Shown here piece after piece: positions 1 to 45,894 of a DNA stretch of 64,000 bases. Position 1 is the stretch's first letter. Every line of letters starts with the position of its first letter. The stretch is taken from positions 8,486 through 72,485 of the forward strand of contig DCJD01000010.1 in assembly GCA_002317215.1 (NCBI GenBank), read 5' to 3'. Under the pieces are notes generated by a model. The model searched no databases and had not been told where the DNA came from. It worked only from the letters and a program-made list of their open reading frames with translations. This DNA comes from Bacillales bacterium UBA1709 (GTDB lineage: Bacteria > Bacillota_I > Bacilli_A > RFN20 > UBA1709). A program made the position numbers and the translations under genes.

Positions 1-29
1 AGGTTGTACTATATTAGGTAAGTAATTAA

Positions 30-58
30 AATGGTTAGGATTAATTCCTAACCATTTT
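30..58. terminator. hairpin (aaatggttagg-attaatt-cctaaccattt) plus T-run downstream of the DUF2804 gene
   Basis: Perfect inverted repeat followed by T-rich tract, read directly from the sequence. Confidence 0.5.
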
Positions 59-60
59 TA

Positions 61-1083
61 TTAATATTTCATATATACTTTTTCAGCAAAACCTAATATA
101 TTATTAATCTTATATTCTGAATTATCTACTTTAATAGTTCCATTAAATCTACCAAATACTTGATGTTGCAAAGTTTTAATTACTAAGATATCGGTATTAG
201 TATAACGATCAATAATTGGAGTGAATTCTAAGTCAATTGATTTATCTTTACTGGTAAATTTCCATTTATCTAAGAATTTACATTCGCCATTTTCATCAAC
301 TGGTATTTCAAATTTAACATCTTCTAATTTATAGGCTTTATCTTTATAGAAGAACATATTCTCACTAGCAGCACTAGTGTTTCCAAAACCATATCCTAGA
401 TTAAATCCAATAGGGTTATTTTTATCGTCTACACCATTTAAACTACTCCAATACCAAGTATTTTTATATGTCCATACTCCTCTACCCCAATCAAGTACGC
501 CATTACAATCATCTAAAGATTCGATTCTATTGCCAAGCTTAACAACACCACTTGCTTTTAGACAATTAATCTTTTGATTATAGTAGAAATGTTTATCTTC
601 ATCCCAAGGGGTTGCAATTACCATTGTATCTTTAATTGGTTGTTCTAAGATAACATCTAATTCAAAGTCTTCTTCTTTATTAAATTTCTCATATTTAACA
701 ACTAGGTGTCTTTTCTTACCGTCATTATAGAATTTAAAATCAAATCCCTTACCAAAATGACTACAATCACCTATTTTACTGGTTTCTGGTAAAGACAATT
801 TTCCTTTACTTAAAGGACCCATTTTAGATTTGGTTACTTCCCATATTCCTTTATAATCTAGAAAACTTGCTGTACATAACCACATATATGAGTTATCAGC
901 AATAGTAACAGCTACTCCAAAATCATCATTACCAATATAATAATAGTCCCATTCTTTAATTCTATGCCATTTAGCCTTAATATCATTTCTATGATATTCT
1001 TTTACTAAATCAAAAGCATATCCAGCTTCATTTAGATTTCCTGCTTCGTTTAATAGTCTTCCTTTAGTTAACTTATGTTGCAT
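61..1083 (-). CDS. DUF2804 domain-containing protein (start moved to the Met of MQHKLTKGRL, which has a GGAGGAA RBS 7 nt upstream)
   Basis: ORF-track protein. Family assignment is by recalled similarity to DUF2804 proteins. There is no signal peptide. It sits downstream of apbE in the same orientation. Confidence 0.5.
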   Translation of the reverse strand: MQHKLTKGRLLNEAGNLNEAGYAFDLVKEYHRNDIKAKWHRIKEWDYYYIGNDDFGVAVTIADNSYMWLCTASFLDYKGIWEVTKSKMGPLSKGKLSLPETSKIGDCSHFGKGFDFKFYNDGKKRHLVVKYEKFNKEEDFELDVILEQPIKDTMVIATPWDEDKHFYYNQKINCLKASGVVKLGNRIESLDDCNGVLDWGRGVWTYKNTWYWSSLNGVDDKNNPIGFNLGYGFGNTSAASENMFFYKDKAYKLEDVKFEIPVDENGECKFLDKWKFTSKDKSIDLEFTPIIDRYTNTDILVIKTLQHQVFGRFNGTIKVDNSEYKINNILGFAEKVYMKY

Positions 1084-1084
1084 A

Positions 1085-2239
1085 TTATAGTTCCTCCTTA
1101 TTAATAATATTTGAATTAAAATCACCATTCATAGTGTCTTTAAAGCCTTTAGAATAAACACAATTATATTTATTTAAATCTAATTCATCATTAGAATAAT
1201 ATGGTTTTAATAATAGATAATCTATTTTCACGTTATAAGTATTTTCTATCTTATTTAATAAAGTTTTTGCTTCATTATCATCATTACAATTAAATATAGC
1301 AGTTGATAATGCATCTAGAAGAGTACTAGTAGCATTACTTGAGATTAAAGATACACTTCTATATGTTGGATTAGAATAACCAGTATTAGGATTTAAAATA
1401 TGTGAGATCCATGGATTTGATTTATCATATGAGAATATATTATCAGCGCTGGTAGATATTTTATAATCTTTATCAATTTCACTAATACAAATATATTCAT
1501 CTGAATTTGGTAAATTAAATCCTATATTATATTTACCATTATCTACATAAGGGTTATTTCCTACTAGACCAATAGTAGATTCACCAAGATTAATAATAGA
1601 GGAGGTATTTAAAGATTTGATATGATTATAAATCTTCTCTCCAATATATCCTTTTCCAATTCCACCAATTGATATTATTGGTTGTACTTCGTTATATTTA
1701 TTAATTGTTATTGATCTTGTGCTATCATCAAAAACAATTATATTATCTATATCATTATAACTTACTATTCCGTTTAATATTGTGCTAATTTCAGAAGAAG
1801 TAGGCATATTAGTATTTGTTGATAAATAAGATGAATATGCATCAATTAATCTTCCAATACATACATTAAACTTACCATCTGTTATCTTGCATAATTCAAC
1901 TGATGTTTTAATTAAATCATATAAATCATTATTACAGTTATTTATATATCCGCTATCATTTAAACTCTTTAAATTCTCTATTCCATCATAATCATGATAA
2001 CGATCAAAATAATGGGACATTGTTGTAATATCATTAATAATTGTATTCTTATTTTGCTGTAGAATATTATTATCATAGAAAGTAATTTTAGAAATAGTAT
2101 TCATTGGAAAAACATATTCATCTTGAATAAACTCTCCAGGTACAGTGAAATAATATTTTTTCTTATCATTATTAGCATTATTATTTTTGCAGGAGGCCAA
2201 TAATAAGATTGATACTAATCCAATTAATTTTCTTCTCAT
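1085..2239 (-). CDS. apbE: FAD:protein FMN transferase (ApbE family) lipoprotein, copy 1
   Basis: Lipobox LLLASC. The ApbE signature is ISIGGIGKGY (compare the GGIAKGY motif of flavin transferases). Confidence 0.75.
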   Translation of the reverse strand: MRRKLIGLVSILLLASCKNNNANNDKKKYYFTVPGEFIQDEYVFPMNTISKITFYDNNILQQNKNTIINDITTMSHYFDRYHDYDGIENLKSLNDSGYINNCNNDLYDLIKTSVELCKITDGKFNVCIGRLIDAYSSYLSTNTNMPTSSEISTILNGIVSYNDIDNIIVFDDSTRSITINKYNEVQPIISIGGIGKGYIGEKIYNHIKSLNTSSIINLGESTIGLVGNNPYVDNGKYNIGFNLPNSDEYICISEIDKDYKISTSADNIFSYDKSNPWISHILNPNTGYSNPTYRSVSLISSNATSTLLDALSTAIFNCNDDNEAKTLLNKIENTYNVKIDYLLLKPYYSNDELDLNKYNCVYSKGFKDTMNGDFNSNIINKEEL

Positions 2240-2253
2240 ATAATAATTATAAA

Positions 2254-2290
2254 ACGAGTAATAAAAAAAGTCAGTATATATACTGACTTT
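2254..2290. terminator. hairpin aaaagtcagtatatatactgacttttt downstream of the lipoprotein gene
   Basis: Inverted repeat plus T-tract. Confidence 0.5.
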
Positions 2291-2314
2291 TTAGCATACA
2301 AATAATATTAATTA

Positions 2315-3496
2315 TTATTGAGCTGCTTGAACTGCTGCATAAACATCAGCGTTTACACCAACGAAACCAGCTTTGCCAAATGCTTTAACATAGTTAGTTT
2401 GAGTAATTGTACAACCACTAATGTTTGTGAATGACATAGCACCGTATGAACCGTTAGTAACGTAATCTGATACAGTAACATCTTTACCTTCAACGAATTT
2501 TTCCATTGCTTCTGCTTGTTCATTCCATTCGCCACCGCCAACGATAACGCCTTTAGCAGCTGAAGTTGACTTCATACCATAAGCAGTACCTAATGCTTTC
2601 TTAGAAACATAAGCACCGTTGCTATAGTATTTAACATTTGTAACAACTGATGGAACTAATGTACTTGAATCAGTTGCATAAGTAACTACTAATGCATCGA
2701 ATTGAGCTGCAACAACTTTGTTACCTTTTAAGATAACTCCACACATATCGAATCCGACTTCTGTGCTTGGTAATCCATAGTTATAAGCAGGACCGTATTC
2801 ACAGCCTACACCAGTTGTAACTTCAGTATCTAAATCATATTTCTTAGATGCTTTGTGTTCACTAGCATATTTGATTGCTTTTACGTATTCGCCTAAGTTG
2901 ATTGTACAACCAGCTTTTAATCCAGCATCAGTTGCATAACCAGTTGCACCAACTGCTGCTTCAATTTCTGCAACAGTTTTGCCTTTACACCATGCTGAGA
3001 ATGCTTCGATTTGAGTATCTGCTTCTGCACCACCAGCGATAACGCCTTTAGCAGCTGAAGTATTCTTCATACCATAAGCATCACCTTGGTATAATTTTGA
3101 TGCTTGAGCATCTGCACTGTGAGTTTTTACACCATATACAGTTTCTTGTGTATCAATTTTATCTGCTGTACATTTGTGGTTATCAACGTGAGTTTGTGTC
3201 CAAGTAACTTGTGCACTTGTTCCTTCAACTTTACTTTGAACGCAGTCAAATCTAGCTGAAACAATTTTCTTAGTAACAGTGTTGAATGCGGCTACACAGT
3301 AAGTAACATCAACTTGTTCAGAAGCGAATGCAGGTGAATCTCCATTAGTCATGTTTGTAGCTGTTTTAGCTGAGAAACCTAAACCAATTTGCATCATTGG
3401 AGTAACTTTAGCATCTTCTTCTTTTTTACCACAACTTGCTAGTGATAAACCTAGAACTGCTGCACCAAATAATGCGACATATTTTCTAAATTTCAT
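2315..3496 (-). CDS. secreted lipoprotein with two tandem FMN-binding-like domains (PplA-like candidate flavinylation substrate)
   Basis: Signal peptide with lipobox LSLASC. There is an internal duplication: YGMKNTSAAKGVIAGG / YGMKSTSAAKGVIVGG are Gly-rich starts. Each repeat ends with LKAGCTINLGEYVKAI / NISGCTITQTNYVKAF, which resembles the D-x-x-SGAT-[IV]-TS flavinylation motif of FMN_bind domains. Confidence 0.55.
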   Translation of the reverse strand: MKFRKYVALFGAAVLGLSLASCGKKEEDAKVTPMMQIGLGFSAKTATNMTNGDSPAFASEQVDVTYCVAAFNTVTKKIVSARFDCVQSKVEGTSAQVTWTQTHVDNHKCTADKIDTQETVYGVKTHSADAQASKLYQGDAYGMKNTSAAKGVIAGGAEADTQIEAFSAWCKGKTVAEIEAAVGATGYATDAGLKAGCTINLGEYVKAIKYASEHKASKKYDLDTEVTTGVGCEYGPAYNYGLPSTEVGFDMCGVILKGNKVVAAQFDALVVTYATDSSTLVPSVVTNVKYYSNGAYVSKKALGTAYGMKSTSAAKGVIVGGGEWNEQAEAMEKFVEGKDVTVSDYVTNGSYGAMSFTNISGCTITQTNYVKAFGKAGFVGVNADVYAAVQAAQ

Positions 3497-3590
3497 TATT
3501 ATATTTCTCCTTTCAATTTAGATAATCTAATTTTACTATAAATATAGTAAAAAAGAAAAGAGTATTTTACAATTTTTATATGTTATGAAT

Positions 3591-4109
3591 TTATTTGATT
3601 AAAAATGCTTTATTCAATAGATTTAAGATAATAGTTGATAAGTATGCTATTAAAATACCAGATATAGTAGAAGAGATCATTAATATTGGTAAATAATTAA
3701 TCATTGATGGTAAAGAATACAATATAATAACACCAATTATTTGACCAATACTATGAAAGATAGCACTAGAGATTGATAATCCATATATACTTATTTTTTT
3801 AACGAAATAATAAATAATTAATACAAATATTGATGATAAGATATAACCTGAAAAAGATAATATTGATGCAGGACTTCCAAGACCAGTTCTTAATAATGCA
3901 ACTAGAAAAACTCTAAGAAATCCAATTAATAAATATTCTTTTGGAGAATAGAAATATAATACAGTTAATCCCATTAGATTAGCTAAACCAAGTTTTACCC
4001 CTGGAATTGGTATTGGTAAAGGAATCATTGATTCTAAAATATTCAAAACAATTCCTAATGCAAGGAACATTGATAATCTTGTTATTTTTTTAGTTTTTGA
4101 AACGTTCAT
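3591..4109 (-). CDS. Gx transporter family membrane protein (formerly annotated as heptaprenyl diphosphate synthase component I-like)
   Basis: Polytopic membrane protein with PLPIPIPGVKLGLANL motif. It is in its typical position next to the NusG-II protein and ApbE. Confidence 0.5.
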   Translation of the reverse strand: MNVSKTKKITRLSMFLALGIVLNILESMIPLPIPIPGVKLGLANLMGLTVLYFYSPKEYLLIGFLRVFLVALLRTGLGSPASILSFSGYILSSIFVLIIYYFVKKISIYGLSISSAIFHSIGQIIGVIILYSLPSMINYLPILMISSTISGILIAYLSTIILNLLNKAFLIK

Positions 4110-4113
4110 ATTC

Positions 4114-4542
4114 TTAACCTACTGATATTACATCATCTATTGATTCACTTTCGATACTAACAATTACTCCATTAGGAATGCAAACAATACTTTTACCTTT
4201 CTTTGAAATATATCCATATTTCTCGCAAGTATGATTAGGACAAGTAATATTGTGAACTCTAACTCCTTTATCAATTGATATTTCAACTGTAAAATCCCCG
4301 TATAAATCAGGGTAATCTTCCTTTTTAATAACATATACCATATCTTCTTTTAATTCATCGTAATTAATTTTAGCGATACTAGTATTTTGATATTGGATAT
4401 TAATAATTCTATCCCCATTGCTATTAGCTTTATAATTGACAATTATTATTGAAGAAACCGAAATAAGTATTGCTAATATAGCAATAAGAATATCAAATAT
4501 ATTAAACTTTAAAGAAAAATTATTTTTCATAAACACCTTCAA
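4114..4542 (-). CDS. NusG domain II-containing membrane-anchored protein
   Basis: N-terminal TM helix. Cys motif CPNHTC...C. Size and gene context (between ApbE and the Gx transporter) match this family. Confidence 0.45.
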   Translation of the reverse strand: MKVFMKNNFSLKFNIFDILIAILAILISVSSIIIVNYKANSNGDRIINIQYQNTSIAKINYDELKEDMVYVIKKEDYPDLYGDFTVEISIDKGVRVHNITCPNHTCEKYGYISKKGKSIVCIPNGVIVSIESESIDDVISVG

Positions 4543-5788
4543 TACCGTTTGCTAATTCTAAGGTATTATTAACGTTATTAGTATAATGAACTTTTAAAGA
4601 ATAATCTTTAAGATTTCCATTATTATATTTTTGAACTAAATAAAATGTATCAAATTGATAGTTTAAGTCCTTTCTTAATTTCATTCCTTCCTCAATACTC
4701 ATATTCATAAGTGCAGTTGATAAAATATCAAGATAAGCACTTGATAATGAATATGAAAGAATTGAGACAGATCTATAATAAGATTCTGGATATCCAGTAA
4801 ATGGATTAATAATGTGATGTCTATTTAAAACTAAAACTCCATCAATAACACAATAATGTTTATTAACTGTGTAGTTACCACTTGTTGAATAGTTAAACTG
4901 ATTTGAAACTTTAATGGAAAAAGCGCTCCCATCAAAACTATTTGGATCTCTTGTTTCGATACTCATTCCACCAGATTTTTTAGTATAAATTGGCTCAGAT
5001 AAACTTTCTAATGAACTTCCACCGCTAAATAATATCCCATCTTTATATCCATTATCAATTAGTTTTTGTTTAACTTTATCTGTTGCATATCCTTTTGCAA
5101 TACCACCTAAACTGATATATGGTCTATATGATGATGAATTTAAAATATTGTTAAACTTAACTGAATAGTTTTCTTCATTAAAAGTTAATTGATTATTGTA
5201 ATTTTCAAGGGTATTTGGAATAGCTGAAACAAGATTTTCCAGGCGTGTTTTAGCATCATTATTAACGTATGGGTCATAATCATAGACATCCATATAATTA
5301 TTATATGAACTGAAACACCCTTCCCAAAAATCTGTTAAACCACCTGTAAAAATATTAAACATACCATTGGTTAATGAATATGAACTATAGCAAAATTTCA
5401 GACAATCATATAAATCTTTATCAATTTGAATTTCTTCATTAGTTCCATAACTTTCATTGATTACTTTTAAATTATTAATCAAATTTCCATTTGAATCAGC
5501 ATAATAATAATGACGATCAAATAATTTGTGGAACCTAATTATTTCATCTGTATAAATATTAATAATATTGTTTTTAATTTCGTCGGCATTTTTATTTTTC
5601 TTATCAAAAAAATATCTCACAACCATTGAAGTATTAAAAGGATCAACTTGGTGTCCTATTGTACAATTTGTATCGTCATAACCAATGATTTCATCTTGAA
5701 TTGTAAATGATTGCCAAGACCCTTTTCTATCACATGATGTTAAACATAAAATCGAAATTATACTTAACAATAAAACTTTCTTTTTCAT
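4520..5788 (-). CDS. apbE: FAD:protein FMN transferase (ApbE family) lipoprotein, copy 2
   Basis: Lipobox LCLTSC. ApbE motif ISLGGIAKGYATD. Confidence 0.75.
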   Translation of the reverse strand: MKKKVLLLSIISILCLTSCDRKGSWQSFTIQDEIIGYDDTNCTIGHQVDPFNTSMVVRYFFDKKNKNADEIKNNIINIYTDEIIRFHKLFDRHYYYADSNGNLINNLKVINESYGTNEEIQIDKDLYDCLKFCYSSYSLTNGMFNIFTGGLTDFWEGCFSSYNNYMDVYDYDPYVNNDAKTRLENLVSAIPNTLENYNNQLTFNEENYSVKFNNILNSSSYRPYISLGGIAKGYATDKVKQKLIDNGYKDGILFSGGSSLESLSEPIYTKKSGGMSIETRDPNSFDGSAFSIKVSNQFNYSTSGNYTVNKHYCVIDGVLVLNRHHIINPFTGYPESYYRSVSILSYSLSSAYLDILSTALMNMSIEEGMKLRKDLNYQFDTFYLVQKYNNGNLKDYSLKVHYTNNVNNTLELANGIEGVYEK

Positions 5789-5828
5789 ACATAAAAAATT
5801 ATATCATAAACAACTCTAAATAAAAGAA

Positions 5829-5849
5829 AAGGAGTTATATTAACTCCTT
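5829..5849. terminator. hairpin aaggagttatattaactcctt downstream of the rnfB-like gene (terminator or attenuator between the rnf operon and apbE)
   Basis: Inverted repeat followed by T-rich tract on the minus strand. Confidence 0.45.
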
Positions 5850-5857
5850 AACTTTAA

Positions 5858-6184
5858 CTATTTAATATCGTTTAATACACTTCCATCAGGACCTGGTGTA
5901 GATTTTAGATATTCAATTATTTCAGCTAATTTTTCTTTCTTAAGTGGTTTACATAAAGAAACTTGTTTATTTGAACCACTAATAATAGAATCTGCCATAC
6001 CTGAACATCCAGGATATCCGCATCCGCCACAGTTTGCTCCTGGTAACATTGAAAGTAATACTTCTAATCTTGGATCAGCTTTAACTGATAAATATTTATC
6101 TGCAACTGCTAATAATAATCCAAGGAATGCTCCAATGCCAAGTGTAACTACTAACGCTTTAATAATTACAATAATTGTTTCCAT
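5858..6184 (-). CDS. rnfB: RnfB-like subunit, truncated: membrane anchor plus N-terminal 4Fe-4S (FeS) domain only, with no polyferredoxin domains
   Basis: The sequence LPGANCGGCGYPGCSGMADSIISG...C matches the RnfB N-terminal Fe-S domain pattern. At 108 aa it is far shorter than typical RnfB. Confidence 0.6.
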   Translation of the reverse strand: METIIVIIKALVVTLGIGAFLGLLLAVADKYLSVKADPRLEVLLSMLPGANCGGCGYPGCSGMADSIISGSNKQVSLCKPLKKEKLAEIIEYLKSTPGPDGSVLNDIK

Positions 6185-6185
6185 T

Positions 6186-6353
6186 TTAGTTCTCCTTTTT
6201 ATGATTAGCGCAGGACGTTATTTGACATCCCTCGCAATTTTCTGATAAATTAACGCATCCTTCTGGTTTAGGTGTTCTTTGGTTTAATACATAACTGAAT
6301 ATGAACAAACCACTACATATTCCTAAAGCCACAATGGATAATATAATTTTCAT
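6186..6353 (-). CDS. 55-aa membrane micro-protein with C-x6-C-x2-C-x4-C motif (MKIILSIVALGICSGLFIFSYVLNQRTPKPEGCVNLSENCEGCQITSCANHKKEN); not in the ORF track
   Basis: Hand-translated. Its ATG overlaps the rnfA stop (TAATG). Its 3' end carries the AAGGAG RBS and an ATG overlap for the rnfB-like gene, so it is translationally coupled on both sides. Confidence 0.5.
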   Translation of the reverse strand: MKIILSIVALGICSGLFIFSYVLNQRTPKPEGCVNLSENCEGCQITSCANHKKEN

Positions 6354-6964
6354 TACAAGCTTAATCCCATAAAGGCTGCAAATGCTAGAGCCATTAAGGA
6401 TGTTGTAATAAGAGCAATGCTGTTTCCTTTGAATGCTTCTGGAGTTTCTTTATTGCTATCAATTCTTACTCTGATGAATGAGAATAGAGTAATAACTAAC
6501 ATATAGCCAAGAGAAGTGAAGATAGCATAAACTAACATATTGATAAATGTATATTCAAATGTTATAACTCCATTTAATTCTGTGTATGCAGCAACTTTTT
6601 GTGCAACGAATAATACAACACAGTTTGTTGTAATTAAAGGTAAATAAATACCTAAAGCTTTATAAAGAGACACAAGATATTTCTTCATAAAGAATTCAAC
6701 GAATTGAACGAATGCTGCGATAACTAAGATAAATATAACTAATTGTAGGAAATCTAATCCAAGTGGAACTAAGATATATTTTTCTAAAGCGAAACATATA
6801 ATAGCACTCATAGTAACTACGAAAGTAAGTGCTAATCCCATACCAATAGCATTGCTAGGTTTTTTAGAAATACCTAAGAATGGACAAATTCCTAAGAAAT
6901 TAGAAAGAATAATATTACTTGAGAATAAACAAGCAATAATGATTGCAAATATACTCATATTCAA
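6353..6964 (-). CDS. rnfA: Rnf complex subunit A
   Basis: Motifs GICPFLG and IYLPLITTNC. Six-TM protein of RnfA/NqrE type. Confidence 0.8.
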   Translation of the reverse strand: MNMSIFAIIIACLFSSNIILSNFLGICPFLGISKKPSNAIGMGLALTFVVTMSAIICFALEKYILVPLGLDFLQLVIFILVIAAFVQFVEFFMKKYLVSLYKALGIYLPLITTNCVVLFVAQKVAAYTELNGVITFEYTFINMLVYAIFTSLGYMLVITLFSFIRVRIDSNKETPEAFKGNSIALITTSLMALAFAAFMGLSL

Positions 6965-6970
6965 TTCCTC

Positions 6971-7837
6971 CTATTTACTTTCTGCAGCTTTTGCTGCTTT
7001 TTTATTTGCGATTGCTTTTCTAGCGCCATTAAAGCCAGCAACGCAGAAACCAAGTACTAAGAAAGCACCTGATGGTTGAGCTAATAAACCAATTTCATAT
7101 GGTGAAGAGAAAGATTGATTTGCTGCGAGTTTTAATGCATCAACAACTTCTTTAGTACCATATGTTTCATCAGTAATAACTTTTAATTCTTTTGTAATCT
7201 TGCTTAGATTATAACCATTATTTGAATATTCAGAGATTAATTCTTTTAATGAATTAACATCACCAATTTTAAATTCGGTGATTAAAGCATCATAAACAAC
7301 TTTATCTTCTTTTGCTAAAGGAATAATTCTTGTAATAGAAGTAACGTTTCCTTCAAGATCTTTCATTGTGATAACACCAGTACCTAAGATTTCTCTTAAT
7401 GCAGCAACAATTGTTAATGCAAAGAAGAAACCAAGGGAGATACCAATGGCATCCATGATAGAATTTACTACACTATTTTTAGAAGCGTAGCTTTCAGCTC
7501 TTCCTAAAATAATACAGTTAACAACGATTAATTGTAGATAACTTCCTAGAGTTGTATAAATTCCAGGAGCATAAGCGTTTACGAATAATGAAACTGCTGT
7601 AACAATAGTAGCAATAATAACAATGTATACAGGAATTCTTATCTCACTAGGAGTAAATTTAGCAATTAATGAAATAGAAATATTTGACATTAATAATACT
7701 AAGAATACACAAGCACTCATACCAATAGCACTGTAAATTGAACTACTAGTTGCTAATACTGGACACATTCCAAGGAATAAGACAAATGTTGGGTTTTCAT
7801 TTATAATCCCGTTTAAAATAATTTTTAATTTTTTCAT
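6971..7837 (-). CDS. rnfE: Rnf complex subunit E with an inserted soluble domain of about 80 aa before the last TM helix
   Basis: GMCPVLA motif. RnfE/NqrD-like TM pattern. The insertion is MKDLEGNV...ANQSFSSPYE. Confidence 0.7.
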   Translation of the reverse strand: MKKLKIILNGIINENPTFVLFLGMCPVLATSSSIYSAIGMSACVFLVLLMSNISISLIAKFTPSEIRIPVYIVIIATIVTAVSLFVNAYAPGIYTTLGSYLQLIVVNCIILGRAESYASKNSVVNSIMDAIGISLGFFFALTIVAALREILGTGVITMKDLEGNVTSITRIIPLAKEDKVVYDALITEFKIGDVNSLKELISEYSNNGYNLSKITKELKVITDETYGTKEVVDALKLAANQSFSSPYEIGLLAQPSGAFLVLGFCVAGFNGARKAIANKKAAKAAESK

Positions 7838-7853
7838 ATCTTATACTCCTTTC

Positions 7854-8387
7854 CTACCATGTCATAGCCATATAGTCAGCACGACATAATTCAATAGCTT
7901 TTGCTAAAGGTTCTCCAGTAGCTGATTTTCCAGCCATAGCAGAAGTGTAAGTTGAATACTCTAGAAGTTTTGTTTGCGCGCTTAAACCACTAACAAGATC
8001 TCCCATAGATTCAATTAAATCTTTACCATATCCAGAGTCTTCGCCGTTTGCGATATCTGAATATCCAACGTATTTGTTATCTGCGAAAGCAACAACAAAT
8101 TTAATAGTATTATTTCTTCCGGAAATAGACATGTTGTAACAAGCGCCATTAACAGTTTTGTTAACAACTTTCTTTGTACATCCTTCAAAATTAGGAGTAT
8201 CAACTACTTCAAAATCTGAAGCTGATGCATTATATGCTGAGAATAATTCAACATATGCTTGATTTGATTTAGCTAATTCGTTGCTTGCAATTTTCTTTTC
8301 AGTTGATTTATAAACAACTGCTAATAATAATCCGCAAGCTCCTACTACTGTACCTAAGAATAGGGGTAATTTTAAAAACTTATTCAT
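7854..8387 (-). CDS. rnfG: Rnf complex subunit G (FMN-binding subunit, divergent)
   Basis: N-terminal TM. Its position between rnfD and rnfE. A C-terminal GKSAT motif sits where SGAT is normally found. Confidence 0.6.
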   Translation of the reverse strand: MNKFLKLPLFLGTVVGACGLLLAVVYKSTEKKIASNELAKSNQAYVELFSAYNASASDFEVVDTPNFEGCTKKVVNKTVNGACYNMSISGRNNTIKFVVAFADNKYVGYSDIANGEDSGYGKDLIESMGDLVSGLSAQTKLLEYSTYTSAMAGKSATGEPLAKAIELCRADYMAMTW

Positions 8388-8399
8388 ATTTAATTCCTC

Positions 8400-10160
8400 C
8401 TATTTACTTTCTAATGCATATAATTGATATGCTTTATTTACAAGATCTTTAATGATTTGTGGCGAGTATGTAGATTTTGAAGCAGTAGTAGCTTTACCGC
8501 AAACTAGTGCATCAACAGCAGCTTGACCATTGCCAACTACTTGTTCGCTAACAAACTTACCATAATATGAAGTATCAGTTCCAGCCATCTTTTCATCAAT
8601 GAAACCAACACCTTGAACCTTATCTTGTTTATCAATAACAACTAATCCCACTACATTTAATGGAATTGGGTATCCTTCAGCTGAGATGCTTGCTTTGCTA
8701 CCCATTGCTTTTTCATAATCAATAACGTAAGCATATGCAACTACTTCATCACCATTTTTAACAAGATATTTACTATCTAATGTAGATTCATTACTGAATG
8801 TATAACCTACTTCGACGTCATCACTATATTTGCAATATCTTTCATTTTCATTTAAAGCTACTGCTGATTGTAATTGTGCATCTTGTGCATAATTTAATCC
8901 GTCTTTATTAACGACACCAATGTGAGTTACTTGACCGCTTGCCATAAATCCTAAGCAGATTGCAGCAATAACAACACCTAATCCTAAACCAGCAACTTTA
9001 ACTGGATAGTGTCTATTTGTCTTGCCTTTAATTGCAGCATCAATAGCAGGGCTAATCAAGTTTGCTAAAGCAATTGAGAACATTGCACCTTCTGGATAAC
9101 CGCCTTTAATTCTAATTAAAACAGTCATAAATCCAGCAAATATTGCACAGATGCTCTTTCCTAAGCTTGAAGTTGGTCCAGTAACTGGATCAGTTAGCAT
9201 AAATACCGCACCAAAGGCAACGCCGCCTAAACCGATGCTAGCGACTAAATATGCTAATACGCTATTGCCAGTTAATGTAGCAATAACAACAGCTGATAAT
9301 GCAACAGTTCCTAAGTAGAATGCTGGTGTTCTCCAGTTAATAACTCCAAGAACTGATAATACAATACCTAAGCCTAAAATTAATACAGTGAATGTTTCGC
9401 CTAAAGCACCAACATATTCACCGAATAATATATTCTCTAAAGTGAAACCTTCAATTAATGAATTTTCAATAACAGCAGCACCTACAGGTCTTGTAGTGTA
9501 AATCCAAAGTTGCGAATTGTTATATACACTAGTAATTGTAGAACCTGTAGCAGCATCAACACCAACAGCAGTTGCTGCTTCGCCTGCTAATTCTGCTGCA
9601 GAAACAGTTTGGATGATTTCAGGAGTTGCTAATGCACTTCCGAAACATAATCCAACGAAAATTCTTGCCATAATTGCAGGATTAAAGATGTTTTTACCAA
9701 AACCACCAAATACATTTTTGCAAACTAATGTTGCAAATACTGAACCAACAATAATTACATAGTAGCTAGTAAATACTGGTAGAGTTAAGGCAAAAATAAT
9801 CCCGGTAATATAAGAATAGTTATGAACTATTGTATGAATGATATCTTTACCTAAAGATATATTCTTGTGTGTTTTATGAACACATAATGTATGGATAACA
9901 TCACATACAATTGAAGTAACAACAGCAACAATAACATTTAGTATTGCTTTTAATCCATAATCAACATATGGGAGTTGTTCTTCAATATCTAATTCTAAAT
10001 TTTCTAATTCAATATATTCATTAATCTTATCGGATAAATTAAAGTAATAAATAATTCCACTTACCCATACAACAACAAGTGCTGCAAGTAAGATTAACAT
10101 TATTTTTAATGTTGAATTTTTGCTTCTTTGATAAGGAGCAGGATTTGTTCTAAATGCCAT
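8400..10160 (-). CDS. rnfD: Rnf complex subunit D with a long C-terminal extension of about 200 aa
   Basis: NqrB/RnfD-like membrane core with VDAATGSTITS motif. The C-terminal extension contains VDALVCGKATTAS, which is FMN_bind-like. Confidence 0.7.
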   Translation of the reverse strand: MAFRTNPAPYQRSKNSTLKIMLILLAALVVVWVSGIIYYFNLSDKINEYIELENLELDIEEQLPYVDYGLKAILNVIVAVVTSIVCDVIHTLCVHKTHKNISLGKDIIHTIVHNYSYITGIIFALTLPVFTSYYVIIVGSVFATLVCKNVFGGFGKNIFNPAIMARIFVGLCFGSALATPEIIQTVSAAELAGEAATAVGVDAATGSTITSVYNNSQLWIYTTRPVGAAVIENSLIEGFTLENILFGEYVGALGETFTVLILGLGIVLSVLGVINWRTPAFYLGTVALSAVVIATLTGNSVLAYLVASIGLGGVAFGAVFMLTDPVTGPTSSLGKSICAIFAGFMTVLIRIKGGYPEGAMFSIALANLISPAIDAAIKGKTNRHYPVKVAGLGLGVVIAAICLGFMASGQVTHIGVVNKDGLNYAQDAQLQSAVALNENERYCKYSDDVEVGYTFSNESTLDSKYLVKNGDEVVAYAYVIDYEKAMGSKASISAEGYPIPLNVVGLVVIDKQDKVQGVGFIDEKMAGTDTSYYGKFVSEQVVGNGQAAVDALVCGKATTASKSTYSPQIIKDLVNKAYQLYALESK

Positions 10161-10174
10161 AAATTCTTTCCTCC

Positions 10175-11488
10175 TTATTTCTTAGGCATGCTAAGTTTAA
10201 CAATAGCCTTGCCTTTTTTAATTGTCTCAGTAACATCAATTTTACTTGGACAAATATAACTACACATTCCACATTCAATACAACTTAAGATGTCGTATTT
10301 TTTCATACCTTCTACATCTCTTTTTTCAGCTGCTTCTTTTAAAGCAACTGGTTGTAAATATGCTGGACAATGTGCAGTACATTTACCACATCTTAAACAT
10401 GCATCTGCTGTAGCTTGGCAATATTTTAAGACTGTGATTGATCCCATTTGCATTAACATTGGGAATGTATCAAATGATACTGCCTTTGAACACATTGGTC
10501 CACCAGGAATAAAGTTAATATCACCTTCTACTACTCCACCACAAACTTTAATTAATTCGTTTGATAGAGTACCAACAGGGATTAAAACGTTATGTGGGTT
10601 AACTATACCATTACCACTAACTGTAACTAATCTAGTTGCAACAGTCTTACCAGTTGATAAAGTTCTACCAAGTTCAATAACAGTAGTTGCATTATTAACA
10701 GCAACTTTAACTTCACTTGGTAATGTTTTATATTCCTTATGGAATATATTTCTAATTAAGACTCTTTCCCAACCCATTGGGTAAGCATCTTTTGTCTCAA
10801 CTAATCTAATATTAGGATGATCGGCTAATTTTGCTAATACAGCTTCTTTAACTTCATCTTTGTGAACCTTGATAGCAATGATAGCTTCTTTAGCACCGCT
10901 TGCTTTCATTAAGTATTCACAACCTAATAATAATTCGTCAACTCTTTGTTGCATTACGATAAAGTCAGTAGTTAAGTATGGTTCACACTCAATACCGTTA
11001 ACAAGTAATGTTTCAATTTCACTAGATCCATTATATTTAATGTAAGTTGGGAATCCAGCTCCGCCCATACCTACTAGACCAGCCTCTTTAATAGCATCTC
11101 TGATTTTTTCAGCACTATCTTTTAAAGTTACTGTCTTTAATGGTTTTTCCTCATCGTATTTACCATCATTTTCGATAACTACATGAGGGATTGCACGTCC
11201 AACTTGTGGAGAGAAAACATTTTCATTAGCAACAACTTTTCCACTTACTGAAGAGTAAATTGGAACATAGAAATCGCTTCTTAAACCAATTTTAGTTCCA
11301 ACCTTGACCTTGTCCCCTTCTTTTACATCAAATGTAATAGGTTTACCATTTGGGGCCATTGTTGGAAAATAAACTTTTTTAGGAGCATTATTTCCACTTA
11401 CTAATGAGATTATTTCTTCGTGCTTGGTTAATTCTTTGTGGCCATCAATATGTTTTTGGCCTTTTGAACTAAATAAACTCATTTTCAT
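10175..11488 (-). CDS. rnfC: Rnf complex subunit C (NADH-binding, two [4Fe-4S] clusters)
   Basis: GMGGAGFPT nucleotide-binding motif. Cluster motifs CLRCGKCTAHCP and CIECGMCSYICP. Confidence 0.85.
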   Translation of the reverse strand: MKMSLFSSKGQKHIDGHKELTKHEEIISLVSGNNAPKKVYFPTMAPNGKPITFDVKEGDKVKVGTKIGLRSDFYVPIYSSVSGKVVANENVFSPQVGRAIPHVVIENDGKYDEEKPLKTVTLKDSAEKIRDAIKEAGLVGMGGAGFPTYIKYNGSSEIETLLVNGIECEPYLTTDFIVMQQRVDELLLGCEYLMKASGAKEAIIAIKVHKDEVKEAVLAKLADHPNIRLVETKDAYPMGWERVLIRNIFHKEYKTLPSEVKVAVNNATTVIELGRTLSTGKTVATRLVTVSGNGIVNPHNVLIPVGTLSNELIKVCGGVVEGDINFIPGGPMCSKAVSFDTFPMLMQMGSITVLKYCQATADACLRCGKCTAHCPAYLQPVALKEAAEKRDVEGMKKYDILSCIECGMCSYICPSKIDVTETIKKGKAIVKLSMPKK

Positions 11489-11495
11489 TCACCTC

Positions 11496-11514
11496 TTGTG
11501 ATATTATATCACAA
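11496..11514. promoter_or_regulatory. 19-bp perfect palindrome TTGTGATATTATATCACAA immediately upstream of the rnfC RBS; candidate Rex- or CRP/FNR-type operator
   Basis: Read directly from the sequence. It resembles the Rex box TTGTGAA-N4-TTCACAA and the CRP half-sites TGTGA/TCACA. Confidence 0.4.
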
Positions 11515-11623
11515 CACTTTTTCTCTTATCTACTAAAATTAAACATTTATAATTTTATAAATAAAAATTATAGGAGATAAGAAAGAAAAGTGAATGAAAA
11601 TGAGTATTAAAAAAAGACTATTT

Positions 11624-12301
11624 TTAAACAATCTTTAATGTTCTTAAATAGTCTTTTTTACCTTGTTCTATTCTATTTGATTCTATAGCTTTTTGAATTG
11701 ATTTATTCTGAATCCATTTATCTAATTTTTTTGATTCTATTAGTCTAATTGTTTGATCATATTGCTTAATTAAGGCTAAAGAATAATACCATGCGATTGC
11801 AATATTGATGTAATATTCATTTGATTTAATTGTACTTAAAATATCTAAAAATTTTGGATCAAAATCTTCATCTAAAAATAGATTCATAAGACATATAATT
11901 CCAAACCTAACCGTATATGTTTTATCTGATTTTAACCACTCTAAAATATACTCTAAAATATCATCTTTATGCTTCTAAAAAACTAGTGGCATAATAGTAT
12001 CACTTGTGGCCCAATTATCAATATATGGAAGAAAGGAAATAATGCGTGATTTTGCTTCTTCATAATTCTTAATTCTTTGAATTAAGAATCCATGTATTAG
12101 ATTTTCTTCATAATATTCATGAGGTAATTCATCGAAAAAATCATCTATTTTATCCTTAGAAAATTCCTTAACTATTTCTCTTAATTTTGGTACTCTTACA
12201 CCAATGATATTTTCTAATTTATAAGTAGGTGTTAACTTACTAATAAATAACTTATATTTAGCATCAGAATACTCATATAATTTGTCTAAAATTTCTTTCA
12301 T
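11624..12301 (-). pseudogene. DNA alkylation repair protein (AlkD/HEAT-repeat family) interrupted by an in-frame TAG at 11975..11977
   Basis: ORFs 11975..12301 and 11624..11887 are in the same frame. Reading through the TAG gives one continuous AlkD-like protein of about 225 aa (...IMPLVF*KHKDDILEYILEWLKSDKTYTVRFGIICLMNLFLDEDF...). Confidence 0.6.
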
Positions 12302-12379: not shown

Positions 12380-12468
12380 TGGTGCCCGGAACGGGAATTG
12401 AACCCGTAAGGAAGTCGCCTTCCGCAGGATTTTAAGTCCTGTGCGTCTACCTATTCCGCCACCCGGGC
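12380..12468 (-). tRNA. tRNA-Leu (anticodon TAA), type II, CCA encoded
   Basis: Manual fold: acceptor gcccggg/cccgggc, anticodon loop cuUAAaa, long variable arm. Confidence 0.8.
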
Positions 12469-12476
12469 ATTAGTAA

Positions 12477-12552
12477 TGGTGACCCGCTGGAGATTCGAAC
12501 TCCAGACCCCTTGATTAAAAGTCAAGTGCTCTACCGACTGAGCTAGCGGATC
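12477..12552 (-). tRNA. tRNA-Lys (anticodon TTT)
   Basis: Manual fold: anticodon stem cttga/tcaag, loop ctTTTaa. Confidence 0.8.
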
Positions 12553-12556
12553 ATAT

Positions 12557-12632
12557 TGGCTGGGGTAGCTGGATTCGGACCAGCGGAATGCCAGAGTCAA
12601 AGTCTAGTGCCTTACCACTTGGCTATACCCCA
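12557..12632 (-). tRNA. tRNA-Gln (anticodon TTG)
   Basis: Manual fold: 76 nt, anticodon loop ctTTGac. Confidence 0.8.
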
Positions 12633-12638
12633 AGAAAA

Positions 12639-12723
12639 TGGTGGAGGAGGACAGATTTGAACTGCCGAACCCGGTGGGAAATGATTTACAGTCATCTGCG
12701 TTTGGCCTCTTCGCTACTCCTCC
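12639..12723 (-). tRNA. tRNA-Tyr (anticodon GTA), long variable arm
   Basis: Similar to Bacillus tRNA-Tyr. Anticodon loop ctGTAaa. The exact 5' end is uncertain by 1 nt. Confidence 0.7.
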
Positions 12724-12739
12724 ACGAAGCATTAATTTA

Positions 12740-12815
12740 ATGGTGGATGCTGAGGGGCTCGAACCCACGACATCCACCTTGTAAGGGTGGCGCTCTCCCA
12801 GCTGAGCTAAGCATC
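12740..12815 (-). tRNA. tRNA-Val (anticodon TAC)
   Basis: Manual fold: 76 nt, anticodon loop ctTACaa. Confidence 0.8.
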
Positions 12816-13089
12816 CATTAATATTAATGCTTTTTAATTTTAATTGATAAATTATTATTAGTCAATAAATAAATCAAAAAGGACACTAAACAATCAATTT
12901 ATTTGTTTTGGCATTTAAGCTAATCTTAAATCACTTAGATATGATATACCTTTTTGAATTATATGTTAATAGAAAAAGCAAAATATAATCAAATCTTATA
13001 TATTTTCAATACACTGATAGTGGTTGTCGTAGCAAAGGCTAATTTTTACATATATATAAATAAATTTATAAGAAAATTCATAAAATAGT

Positions 13090-27965: not shown

Positions 27966-28784
27966 ATGAATAAACCAATTATCAAGATTTCTAATTTAGA
28001 TTTTGGCTATACCAAAGATAAACCAATATTAAGTGATTTAAATCTAGAAATACAAAAAGGCAGTTATAATGTTATACTTGGCAAAAATGGATCAGGAAAG
28101 TCCACACTAGCTAAGCTTCTTTTAGGTCTAATTGAAAAAGATAAGGGAGACATTATTGTCGATGGTTTAGAGTTAAATGAGAAAAATGTATATGAGATTA
28201 GAAATAAAATTGGCATAGTTTTCCAAAATCCTGATAATCAATTTATTGGTGCAACAGTTGCAGATGATATAGCTTTTGGTTTAGAAAACCATCTTGTTGA
28301 AAGTGAAAAGATGCAAGCAATTATTGATGATTTTTCTAAAAAGGTAAATATGTATAAATATCTTGATCATGAACCAAGCCATTTAAGTGGTGGTCAAAAA
28401 CAAAGAGTTGCAATTGCAGGCGTTTTAGCAATGAATCCAAAGATTATTATTTTTGATGAAGCAACTAGTATGCTTGATCCTCGCGGGAAAAAAGAAATTA
28501 ATGAACTAATTTTAGAAACTAGAAAGTTAGTAAAAGATATTACAATATTATCTATTACTCATGATGTTGAAGAAGCTATGAATGCCGATAACATCATAAT
28601 TATTAATGATGGAAAAGTAGTAGATATTGACAGTCCTATTAATATTTTTAAAGATTCAAAAAGAATGCAAGAACTTGATTTAGATGTTCCTTTTGAATTT
28701 AAATTAATAAACGGATTAAAAGATGCTGGGTTAAAAATTAAGTCTAATAATTTAGAACAATTGGGTGATGAATTATGTCGATAA
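27966..28784 (+). CDS. ecfA1: energy-coupling factor transporter ATPase
   Basis: ABC ATPase motifs. Canonical position after rplQ. Confidence 0.85.
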   Translation: MNKPIIKISNLDFGYTKDKPILSDLNLEIQKGSYNVILGKNGSGKSTLAKLLLGLIEKDKGDIIVDGLELNEKNVYEIRNKIGIVFQNPDNQFIGATVADDIAFGLENHLVESEKMQAIIDDFSKKVNMYKYLDHEPSHLSGGQKQRVAIAGVLAMNPKIIIFDEATSMLDPRGKKEINELILETRKLVKDITILSITHDVEEAMNADNIIIINDGKVVDIDSPINIFKDSKRMQELDLDVPFEFKLINGLKDAGLKIKSNNLEQLGDELCR

Positions 28785-29626
28785 AGTTTAACCACGTATT
28801 TTTTAAGTACTATCCAAATTCAAGTATGGAACATATCGCTTTAAACGATATTAATTTTGATATTAATGATCATTCTTATACTGCAATAATAGGACATACA
28901 GGAAGTGGAAAATCCACTCTAGTACAGCAAATTAATGCTTTGTTATTGCCAACTAGTGGTAATGTTTTAGTCAATGAATATAGTATTGATAATAAGTCTA
29001 AAATTGTTGGAATTAAGCAACTAAGAAAAGAAGTTGGAATGGTATTTCAATTTCCAGAATATCAATTATTTGAAGAAACATGCTTTAAAGATATTGCTTT
29101 TGGCCCAAAGAATTTTGGTTTTAAAGAAGAAGAATTAAAAGATAAAGCGATTGAATTATTAAAACTAGTAGGCTTAGATGAATCTTATCTAGAAAGATCT
29201 CCATTTGAACTATCTGGTGGTCAAAAAAGAAGAGTAGCAATAGCGGGAATTCTTTCTCTTGATCCTTCTATTTTAATACTAGATGAACCAACTGCTGGTT
29301 TAGATCCTAAAGGAGCAAAAGAGATGATGGATTTATTCGCTCGTTTATATAAAATGGGTAAAACTATTATTTTAGTAACTCATGATATGAATTATGTTTT
29401 AGAATATGCTACTAATGCCGTTGTATTAAAAGAAGGAAGAATTGTTGATATTGATACACCAATTCATTTGTTTAGTGATGCTAAAAAATGTATTGAAAAC
29501 GATATTGATGTTCCATTATGCATTAAATATGCTTCTTTATTAAATTCAAAAGGATTAAAACTCGATATTAATACTATTAAAAATACAAACGATTTAATAG
29601 AACAAATCGTTAAGGAGAAAAAGTAA
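28775..29626 (+). CDS. ecfA2: energy-coupling factor transporter ATPase
   Basis: ABC ATPase motifs and gene order. Confidence 0.85.
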   Translation: MSIKFNHVFFKYYPNSSMEHIALNDINFDINDHSYTAIIGHTGSGKSTLVQQINALLLPTSGNVLVNEYSIDNKSKIVGIKQLRKEVGMVFQFPEYQLFEETCFKDIAFGPKNFGFKEEELKDKAIELLKLVGLDESYLERSPFELSGGQKRRVAIAGILSLDPSILILDEPTAGLDPKGAKEMMDLFARLYKMGKTIILVTHDMNYVLEYATNAVVLKEGRIVDIDTPIHLFSDAKKCIENDIDVPLCIKYASLLNSKGLKLDINTIKNTNDLIEQIVKEKK

Positions 29627-30453
29627 TGAATAGCATTACATTAGGAAGATATGTTCCTGGCAACACATTACTTCATAAATTAGATCCAAGAACAAAGCTT
29701 TTTGGCTTATTTATTATTCTTATTTCAATATTCTTTGATATTGGTTGGTTTCAATATGCTTTTTTAACACTTTCTATAATCGGTCTATTAATAATTTCTA
29801 AAACCTCATTATTTTCAATATTTTCCTCATTAAAACATATGTGGATGATGATGCTAATTCTATTAATAATAAATTGTTTTGTATATAAAGAAGGAATAGC
29901 TATCTTTACTATCAAATCATTTACTTTATATTCTAGTGCTTTGATTAATACATTAGAGATATTTTTAAGATTATTTATGATGATTGCATTATCAACAATG
30001 TTAACCGCAACAACAAAGCCTTTAGAATTAACTTATGCTATCGAATGGTATTTCTCACCACTAAAGGTTATTAATTTCCCTGCTCATGAAATTGCAATGA
30101 CTATTTCAATTGCTTTACGTTTTATTCCAACTTTATTAGATGAAACTTATAAAATAATGAAAGCCCAAGCAAGTAGAGGTGTAGATTTGCAAAATGGAAC
30201 TTTGAAAGATAAAATTAATGGCGTTGTTTCTTTGATTATCCCTTTATTTGTCTCTAGTTTCCAAAGATCTGAAGAATTAGCTAATGCTATGGAAGCAAGA
30301 GGATATAATCCTAGTGGAAAAAGAACAAGATATAGACAACTAAAATTCCATTTAGTAGATTTATTCTCATTATTTGGATGTATGCTAATCGTATTTATTA
30401 CAATATTTACAGTTTATAATGGCAGTTTATTTAACGGATTTTTAAGACCATGA
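29626..30453 (+). CDS. ecfT: energy-coupling factor transporter transmembrane subunit EcfT
   Basis: CbiQ/EcfT-like membrane protein. Ends in a TGA stop overlapping the truA ATG. Confidence 0.85.
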   Translation: MNSITLGRYVPGNTLLHKLDPRTKLFGLFIILISIFFDIGWFQYAFLTLSIIGLLIISKTSLFSIFSSLKHMWMMMLILLIINCFVYKEGIAIFTIKSFTLYSSALINTLEIFLRLFMMIALSTMLTATTKPLELTYAIEWYFSPLKVINFPAHEIAMTISIALRFIPTLLDETYKIMKAQASRGVDLQNGTLKDKINGVVSLIIPLFVSSFQRSEELANAMEARGYNPSGKRTRYRQLKFHLVDLFSLFGCMLIVFITIFTVYNGSLFNGFLRP

Positions 30454-45792: not shown

Positions 45793-45813
45793 AAGAACAA
45801 TAAACAATAAGAA

Positions 45814-45889: not shown

Positions 45890-45894
45890 GTTTT

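Follow-up and report, generated by a model that had tools for sequence, protein, structure and literature searches.

A probable lineage-specific form of Rnf with a short RnfB, a long RnfD and a flavin maturation kit in low-GC Bacilli

Does an Rnf complex whose RnfB is without its ferredoxin-like domains still exchange electrons between NAD(H) and a low-potential carrier in the cytoplasm, or does it serve electron transfer to the cell surface? The question is raised by a gene cluster at positions 61–11488 (minus strand) of a 64-kb stretch of contig DCJD01000010.1 from Bacillales bacterium UBA1709, the full length of which is called the window below. Rnf is the main membrane redox pump in many anaerobes. 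The cluster is made up of thirteen consecutive minus-strand open reading frames (ORFs) in the order rnfC-D-G-E-A, a 55-residue ORF, rnfB, apbE, NusG_II, Gx, a lipoprotein gene, a second apbE, and DUF2804. An earlier interpretation made without database searches (the sequence-only reading) had placed these genes at these positions, and had described them as an Rnf operon joined to a kit for extracytosolic flavinylation. All of the ORFs were found there, and the description was borne out by family searches that matched Rnf subunits, both ApbE proteins, EetA, and EetB; three ORFs (the 177-residue ORF at the RnfG position, the 55-residue ORF, and the 393-residue lipoprotein) gave no family match at standard thresholds. 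We lean towards the view that the cluster encodes a lineage-specific Rnf of low-GC Bacilli (Erysipelotrichaceae-like, ‘Bacilli bacterium’), accompanied by a flavin maturation kit and a further flavoprotein. The Rnf features on which this view is built are as follows.

10175–11488, minus strand: rnfC, 437 amino acids (aa), NADH/flavin mononucleotide (FMN) module (TIGR01945, 314 bits, cut-off 246; PF01512; RnfC_N)
8400–10160, minus strand: rnfD, long form, 586 aa (PF03116, 213 bits, over residues 6–380 only)
8403–8903, minus strand: C-terminal extension of RnfD, residues ~420–586, FMN_bind-like (hhalign to RnfG-type FMN_bind)
7854–8387, minus strand: rnfG, short and divergent, 177 aa, with a membrane anchor at the N-terminus (profile–profile match to canonical RnfG)
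6971–7837, minus strand: rnfE, 288 aa (PF02508, 183 bits)
6353–6964, minus strand: rnfA, 203 aa (TIGR01943, 204 bits; PF02508, 169 bits)
6186–6353, minus strand: membrane micro-protein, 55 aa, one transmembrane helix and a Cys4 tail (PEGC-x6-C-x2-C-x4-C)
5858–6184, minus strand: rnfB, short form, 108 aa, transmembrane helix and PF04060 (43 bits) only

The residues expected to carry electrons through a classical Rnf are present in these proteins. RnfC contains two CxxCxxCxxxCP 4Fe-4S motifs, and both RnfA (GICPFL and TNCVVL) and RnfE (GMCPVL and VNCIIL) have the paired membrane cysteines that, in established Nqr and Rnf structures, are the ligands of a 2Fe-2S centre. The acceptor site of RnfD, D-A-A-T-G-S-T, aligns with the canonical D-x-V-S-[GS]-A-T-P-L among 45 RnfD sequences, and the four PF04060 cysteines of RnfB are all conserved, together with its TPGPDG tail. 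Because the RnfC motifs, the RnfA/RnfE cysteines, the RnfD threonine, and the PF04060 cluster of RnfB are intact, the classical path between NAD(H) and a low-potential cytoplasmic carrier is probably retained, with a rebuilt docking site for the latter. The reduced RnfB, taken by the sequence-only reading as a sign of a non-classical role, is by itself no such sign. The 177-aa ORF at the RnfG position has no Pfam match and reaches TIGR01947 only with an E-value of 1.4e-3, far under the cut-off; in a comparison with canonical RnfG, hhalign gave a probability of 97.9% (E 3e-13), with a Ser/Thr near the acceptor position. Its orthologues in five related loci (174–197 aa) are likewise not recognised by Pfam.

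These five loci (L009, L071, L089, L090, and L091) have the same Rnf architecture as the window, with which they form the comparison set of six short-RnfB loci, and the gene order of L090 is that of the window through the second apbE; the neighbourhood is thus conserved in relatives. The short RnfB scores 54.5 bits against TIGR01944 (cut-off, 68.7 bits), and alignment with a 265-aa RnfB locates the point of its truncation. No ferredoxin-type 4Fe-4S domain was found in it by Pfam search, and the two motifs of RnfC are the only ferredoxin-type 4Fe-4S motifs across the 64 kb. With the short RnfB as query, 556 relatives were found; each of the best 120 clusters has a length of 101–116 aa and contains PF04060 only, and the named clusters among them are from Bacilli and Erysipelotrichaceae assemblies. 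RnfB of the five related loci measures 102–116 aa. Decay of rnfB into a pseudogene is ruled out by these at least 120 conserved short clusters. L091 encodes SpoIVA and is thus a likely spore former that has the short-RnfB variant.

The micro-protein encoded between rnfA and rnfB consists of a hydrophobic helix, a cluster of basic residues, and the Cys4 tail. An ORF of 65–85 aa occupies the same place in all five related loci, with the four cysteines invariant throughout the comparison set (6/6), and no such ORF was found in ~45 loci with full-length RnfB. The basic cluster after the helix suggests that the cysteine tail is cytoplasmic, and the strict co-occurrence with the short RnfB suggests that the micro-protein compensates for the lost ferredoxin-like domains. 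Similarity to PF12669 (FeoB-associated Cys-rich membrane protein) is below threshold; an NqrM-like maturation factor was considered, but Pfam gave no NqrM match, and no family is claimed. In L089, the Rnf cluster is closely preceded by feoAB and an ORF of 67 aa, which is of note in view of the faint likeness of the micro-protein to FeoB-associated Cys-rich proteins. As a separate observation, two clostridial clusters (L005, 3213–6971, and L076) encode RnfC, D, G, E, and A with no RnfB of any length detected. In the latter two, the Rnf genes are directly followed by NusG_II and Gx, in L005 also by a lipoprotein and ApbE, and the arrangement may represent a still more reduced form of Rnf.

RnfD, which scores 162 bits against TIGR01946 (cut-off, 207 bits), is extended beyond its membrane core. 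A ninth hydrophobic segment at about residues 389–410, with a net charge of +3 before it and –1 after it, precedes the C-terminal extension. A profile of the extension (window, L009, L071, L090, and L091) matches RnfG-type FMN_bind with an hhalign probability of 91% (E 1e-6), in which the Thr of a conserved [TS]-Y-S (S-T-Y-S in the window) aligns with the flavinylated Thr; the Pfam FMN_bind model gives E 2e-3, below threshold, and the RnfD orthologue of L090 has a faint FMN_bind match on record. RnfD-type cores end in the cytoplasm, as established from Nqr and Rnf structures, and since one further helix follows, the extension is predicted to face outward; the charges flanking that helix fit an in-to-out orientation. 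A homologue search with the extension alone gave no matches, the parent protein included, so that it was analysed only through the six loci found by other routes. Long RnfD (524–738 aa) is common to the five related loci. RnfE of the window has an insertion of ~75 aa between its last two helices (roughly nt 7088–7360, minus strand), which is missing in L009 (RnfE, 210 aa) and L071 (226 aa). Among the two extensions pointed out by the sequence-only reading, therefore, that of RnfD is conserved in relatives, whereas the RnfE insertion has no counterpart in L009 and L071. In clostridial relatives, the extra domain is carried by RnfG instead, as tandem FMN_bind (360–400 aa) with up to three S-G-A-T-type sites. 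The 738-aa RnfD of L089 (5653–7869; a 1.33-Mb Bacilli assembly) has two further repeats in its extension that other long RnfD proteins do not have.

Downstream of rnfB, the cluster encodes the enzymes and transporters for flavin attachment, and a general energy-coupling factor (ECF) module lies elsewhere in the window.

4520–5788, minus strand: apbE1, lipoprotein flavin adenine dinucleotide (FAD):protein FMN transferase on the Rnf side (PF02424, 107.5 bits, cut-off 25.6)
4114–4542, minus strand: NusG_II protein, EetA homologue, membrane-anchored (PF07009, 69 bits)
3591–4109, minus strand: ‘Gx’/Hpre_diP_synt_I protein, EetB homologue, ECF-S-like (PF07456, 111 bits; ECF_trnsprt, E 5e-6)
1085–2239, minus strand: apbE2, lipoprotein FMN transferase beside the lipoprotein gene (PF02424, 116.3 bits, cut-off 25.6)
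27966–30453, plus strand: general ECF energising module outside the cluster, two ATP-binding cassette ATPases and CbiQ/EcfT (ABC_tran twice; PF02361, 148 bits)

Both transferase genes are thus confirmed as ApbE by the hidden Markov model (HMM) search. Lipoboxes read from the translations (L-T-S-C and L-A-S-C in the ApbE proteins, L-A-S-C in the two-domain lipoprotein) indicate that all three proteins face outward. Orthologues of ApbE1 at the same position in L090, L071, and L009 are 37–43% identical to it, and ApbE2 shares 36% identity with its L090 orthologue, whose gene likewise follows that of the lipoprotein, with ApbE1 and ApbE2 within one genome sharing ~28%. This pattern fits two ApbE lineages that each keep their own position, with one transferase per substrate set (the Rnf subunits and the lipoprotein). 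PF07009 and PF07456 correspond to EetA and EetB in Rivera-Lugo et al. 2023 (EetA being so labelled in Data Set S1; PMC9973259), where Listeria EetB is the subunit that binds the substrate in an ECF-type FAD exporter supplying the extracytosolic ApbE homologue FmnB, and eetB adjoins eetA in 3,328 genomes, apbE in 2,169, and Rnf genes in 572 Clostridia genomes. The run of apbE, eetA, and eetB after rnfB has accordingly been described before, as a module that matures the flavin sites of RnfD and RnfG on the outer side. The NusG-II/Gx pair, which the sequence-only reading had left as an unexplained extra, is this known pair, and the proposal that Rnf acts here in place of Ndh2/EetAB mistakes the part played by EetAB, which does occur in the cluster and carries flavin, not electrons. 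No dedicated FmnA-like (ECF-T) gene was found in the cluster; it is possible that the ECF module at 27966–30453 is the partner of the EetB homologue.

The further candidate flavoprotein is the product of the gene between eetB and apbE2.

2315–3496, minus strand: lipoprotein, 393 aa, two divergent FMN_bind-fold domains

Its two halves match each other with an hhalign probability of 100% and represent an internal duplication, in which T198 (A-G-C-T, nt 2903–2905) and T363 (S-G-C-T, nt 2408–2410) are the candidate acceptors. A profile of the lipoprotein matches PDB entry 2kzx (Clostridium thermocellum A3DHT5) with E 2e-9, placing A-G-C-T over S-G-A-T, and the matched segment of 2kzx itself passes the Pfam FMN_bind threshold. 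The second domain gave a predicted model with a pLDDT (predicted local distance difference test) of 83. The top structural matches are 2KZX and 3O6U (Clostridium perfringens CPE2226), both FMN_bind (PF04205) proteins, the nearest being CPE2226; solved FMN_bind members score only 2.7–3.8 against each other. On this modelling, the protein is composed of two FMN_bind-fold domains whose relation to the family is visible only by profiles and structure prediction; the two FMN-binding-like repeats of the sequence-only reading stand at fold level, while the FMN_bind HMM gave no match. Two relatives (P0020 and P0023) approach that HMM with E ~1e-3 and 20 bits against a 22-bit cut-off. The earlier comparison with PplA is likewise sound at the level of fold, since the nearest structural relative is of the PplA/Cad type, Cad corresponding to the PplA of Listeria. 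SEED lists CPE2226 as a pheromone-precursor lipoprotein; the same protein has been the modelling template for enterococcal Cad, and PplA/Cad-type relatives also encode pheromone peptides in their signal sequences.

In both domains, Thr occupies the acceptor position in 96–99% of 100 family members, and Ser in the others. The preceding positions are A (80%), G (71–75%) or S, and C (79–84%), V (13–15%), or A (1–5%). The family consensus, (D)-x-x-A-G-C-T, agrees with the canonical motif only in the acceptor Thr and the Gly/Ser at –2. In a model ApbE substrate, replacing the Asp with Ala has a minor effect, Gly-to-Ala halves flavinylation, and loss of the Thr abolishes it; given these tolerances, the non-canonical motif of the family is plausibly competent for flavinylation. 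A first search with the lipoprotein returned 24 relatives, none with a precomputed Pfam domain, and a profile search of 1.84 billion representatives (50% identity) returned 2,176 at E ≤ 1e-3, including 867 at E ≤ 1e-30. At least 419 stretches of species-representative genomes encode a relative, the closest being 34% identical. Gene contexts were counted in the best 80 of these at least 419 stretches; Clostridia supply most of the 80, and several are from Erysipelotrichaceae-type and other Bacillota. Of the 73 loci long enough to include a downstream gene, at least 50 have ApbE as the next gene on that strand, and Rnf genes (46/80) and EetB (45/80) are found within 10 kb. The usual orders are rnfCDGEAB-lipoprotein-apbE-(FMN_bind)-eetA-eetB and rnfCDGEAB-eetA-eetB-lipoprotein-apbE, and pairs of lipoprotein and apbE also occur without nearby Rnf. 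Some family members (P0025, P0026, and similar) are 640–991 aa long with four to six copies of the domain, and resemble the multi-flavinylated proteins known from Pfam-detectable FMN_bind.

Three terminator-like hairpins, 3′ of rnfB, of the lipoprotein gene, and of DUF2804, divide the cluster.

5829–5849, minus strand: terminator-like hairpin separating rnfB from apbE1, stem of nine pairs and then a T run (–13.2 kcal/mol, z –3.1)
2265–2292, minus strand: terminator-like hairpin 3′ of the lipoprotein gene, twelve-pair stem (–14.7 kcal/mol, z –6.6)

The hairpin 3′ of DUF2804 has a predicted –17.6 kcal/mol (z –6.0). Their positions suggest three transcription units: rnfC to rnfB, apbE1-NusG_II-Gx-lipoprotein, and apbE2-DUF2804. 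The first hairpin had been described as attenuator-like; the hairpin and its T-rich tail are present, but nothing points to a regulated attenuator, and it looks like an ordinary intrinsic terminator, possibly leaky. An Rfam scan of the window returned tRNAs only, with no riboswitch found near the cluster.

Based on these features, we propose a working scheme for the variant Rnf and its flavin kit. FAD would be exported by the EetB homologue, probably via the shared ECF module at 27966–30453. FMN would be attached by ApbE1 at Thr/Ser of RnfD and RnfG, and probably in the extension of RnfD as well, and by ApbE2 at T198 and T363 of the lipoprotein. The complex would still exchange electrons with NAD(H) at RnfC and, at the one-cluster RnfB, with a docked low-potential carrier of the cytoplasm; there the Cys4 tail of the micro-protein would replace the lost ferredoxin-like domains. 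A side branch between RnfG/RnfD and acceptors at the surface, operating in either direction, may be formed by the RnfD extension together with both domains of the lipoprotein; electron transfer outward from Rnf is plausible. A more far-reaching form of the scheme, in which the rebuilt ferredoxin arm and a flavin relay (RnfD core, extension, RnfG, and the di-FMN lipoprotein) constitute Rnf-driven extracellular electron transfer (EET) and A-G-C-T marks a new class of ApbE substrates with its own ApbE lineage, is put forward tentatively, and we regard it as rather doubtful.

Several points weigh against the scheme. No gene for a terminal acceptor or reductase was found in the cluster, and deletion of eetA in Listeria gave no phenotype (Rivera-Lugo et al. 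2023, PMC9973259). The role suggested for the micro-protein draws only on its co-occurrence with the short RnfB and on its cysteines. From genome to genome, there is little conservation of the acceptor site in the RnfD extension, less than in RnfG, and flavinylation of the extension is therefore uncertain. As for the lipoprotein, neither Pfam nor NCBIfam recognises FMN_bind in it, and the hhalign matches of its domains to RnfG-type FMN_bind are weak (E 0.035 and 0.002). Its motifs, G-L-K-A-G-C-T and T-N-I-S-G-C-T, depart from D-x-x-[ST]-G-A-[ST] and have no Asp at –6, and a change from Ala to Val at –1 halves flavinylation in the model substrate.

Other arrangements of the same parts have to be considered. 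The cluster could encode an ordinary ferredoxin:NAD+ Rnf with its maturation genes, in which the lipoprotein carries no electrons and handles flavin, holding FAD or FMN for ApbE or serving as a surface buffer. The tightest linkage of the lipoprotein gene is indeed to ApbE/EetB rather than to Rnf, many loci having no Rnf within 10 kb, the electron path of Rnf is intact, and a non-canonical motif may bind flavin rather than accept it. On the other hand, a hydroxyl residue kept at the acceptor position in 96–99% of both domains is more in keeping with covalent attachment than with loose binding, the nearest folds of solved structure are covalently flavinylated electron-transfer domains, and a dedicated ApbE paralogue adjoins the lipoprotein gene; we consider this arrangement unlikely. 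We give still less credence to a lipoprotein that is not an ApbE substrate at all, with an FMN_bind-like fold put to another use (ligand binding, signalling of the pheromone-precursor type, or thiol chemistry of the Cys) and an adjacency to ApbE that reflects shared regulation. Such a role, which we judge very improbable, would agree with the missing Pfam match, with a Cys at –1 in 79–84% that is not known in described ApbE motifs, and with the pheromone peptides in the signal sequences of Cad/PplA-type relatives. Yet that Cys alternates with Val or Ala, so a thiol is not required and thiol chemistry is argued against; some family members (P0004 and 2kzx) have the canonical S-G-A-T, and at least 68% of loci, from distant lineages, have an ApbE neighbour.

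The remaining alternative concerns Rnf itself. Ferredoxin coupling may have been given up in favour of a one-way conduit from NADH through RnfC, RnfD, and RnfG to outward flavins and external acceptors, as an Rnf counterpart of Listeria Ndh2/PplA. An RnfB deprived of all ferredoxin-like domains, the L005 and L076 clusters without any detected RnfB, and the increased number of outward flavin domains would be expected of such a conduit, and a one-way route from NAD(P)H to the outside has already been proposed for two-subunit Nqr/Rnf-like complexes. However, RnfA, RnfE, and the short RnfB keep their cluster cysteines and have gained a Cys4 partner, which would be pointless if that arm were unused. 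Moreover, the cluster has no quinone, cytochrome, or terminal reductase gene, and clostridial loci pair the same lipoprotein family with a full-length RnfB. Loss of the coupling is thus considered quite unlikely, and a variant Rnf that keeps the classical path with an added outward branch is the reading that we favour.

Part of what is found here is already known, namely Rnf with an ApbE/EetAB maturation kit, and an outward branch from multi-flavin Rnf has been hypothesised in print. The form of Rnf with a short RnfB, a micro-protein, and a long RnfD, and the Rnf- and ApbE-linked family of di-domain lipoproteins with A-G-C-T, appear to be undescribed: no description of a short or truncated RnfB, of RnfB in Erysipelotrichaceae, or of this lipoprotein family was found in the literature, most subscription journals being outside the coverage, so that the statement is provisional. 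Rnf genes in genomes of gut Bacilli would have to be read differently if an Rnf whose ferredoxin side has been rebuilt is widespread, and the short-RnfB variant may be misclassified where a full RnfB is part of the definition of Rnf, as in the survey of Meheust et al. 2021 (PMC8238504). The lipoprotein family sits between rnfB and apbE in many Firmicutes, undetected by the Pfam model with which flavinylated proteins are counted. Flavinylation of the family at A-G-C-T, if it occurs, would mean that the accepted ApbE motif is drawn too narrowly and that Firmicutes have more surface flavoproteins than have been reported.

The thirteenth gene of the cluster was considered separately.

61–1128, minus strand: DUF2804 gene, 340 aa from the ATG at 1083 (PF10974, 396 bits; public gene calls, 340 aa)

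It starts directly after the stop codon of apbE2 and may be co-transcribed with it. The protein has no predicted transmembrane segment, its N-terminus is, by eye, unlike a signal peptide, and no relative was found among solved structures. The sequence-only reading had counted it in the toolkit; in 88 related loci, no homologue was found except in the same organism, L090, L071, and L009 being without one and L090 having an SBP_bac_5 gene at its position. Since related loci have no counterpart, DUF2804 is treated as a neighbour, and its candidacy as a component of the system was rejected. Elsewhere in the window, a DNA alkylation repair gene (PF08713; 11624–12301, minus strand) is split into a 108-aa ORF covering profile positions 23–108 of 213 and, after an 87-nt gap, an 87-aa ORF without a match; it is probably a disrupted gene, and Joint Genome Institute (JGI) and Logan contigs show the same split. 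The window sequence matches JGI metagenome contig 3300001598 (74.6 kb) and was found in SRR1221442 too. Its GC skew is negative over 1–12000 and positive over 12001–54000, with a cumulative minimum near 12 kb, at the junction of the Rnf cluster and tRNA genes on the minus strand with the S10 ribosomal operon on the plus strand; the switch could mark a replication origin region or be a mere effect of gene orientation. The tRNA genes form two minus-strand arrays, one of five directly upstream of the Rnf cluster region (12383–12816) and one of eleven (45720–46669). Among housekeeping genes, a 567-aa protein with a borderline GGDEF match (33185–34888, plus strand) and a 575-aa protein with a bacterial surface immunoglobulin-like domain (31181–32908, minus strand) are also encoded.

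In comparison with the canonical Rnf of Acetobacterium woodii and Clostridium tetanomorphum, the window has the same gene order, C-D-G-E-A-B, and shares the RnfC motifs, the RnfD threonine, the RnfA/RnfE cysteine pairs, and the N-terminal Fe-S domain of RnfB. Canonical RnfB, however, is ~265 aa long with ferredoxin-like domains, whereas that of the window is 108 aa without them, and the window adds the gene for the Cys4 micro-protein, an RnfD fused to a helix and an FMN_bind-like domain, and an RnfG so divergent that Pfam fails to recognise it. The flavin-based EET locus of Listeria and Enterococcus resembles the cluster in placing a lipoprotein of two FMN folds by an ApbE-type transferase and an EetA/EetB pair. 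It differs in that the membrane module here is Rnf and that Ndh2, DmkA/B, and a dedicated FmnA are missing; a search for the Ndh2 and DmkA/DmkB families gave no match among the thirteen cluster genes. The acceptor motifs differ as well, A-G-C-T in the window against [ST]-G-A-T in Listeria and Enterococcus. Pairs of Cad and apbE have been reported only in genomes without rnf, whereas the lipoprotein family of the window is often found inside rnf operons. Among solved structures, 2KZX and 3O6U have the same fold as the lipoprotein, and in 2KZX, too, a Y-x-M ... E-W-x-E-Q segment stands before the acceptor site. They are single domains, with the canonical S-G-A-T in 2KZX, in contrast to the tandem of the lipoprotein with its A/S-G-C/V-T below the Pfam threshold.

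The EetB/ApbE kit beside Rnf (PMC9973259) has its likeness in the ApbE, PF07009, and PF07456 genes directly after rnfB. Unlike that kit, the window has two ApbE paralogues of separate lineages, and its cluster has no dedicated ECF-T, a general ECF module lying 24 kb away. Rnf complexes with several flavinylated domains have been proposed to feed extracytosolic acceptors (Meheust et al. 2021, PMC8238504). The window shares with the multi-flavinylated-RnfG clusters of that survey a surplus of outward flavin domains, and its clostridial relatives have such tandem RnfG. The extra domain of the window is borne by RnfD, not by RnfG, and the separate di-domain lipoprotein would add two more, invisible to the Pfam FMN_bind model of the survey.

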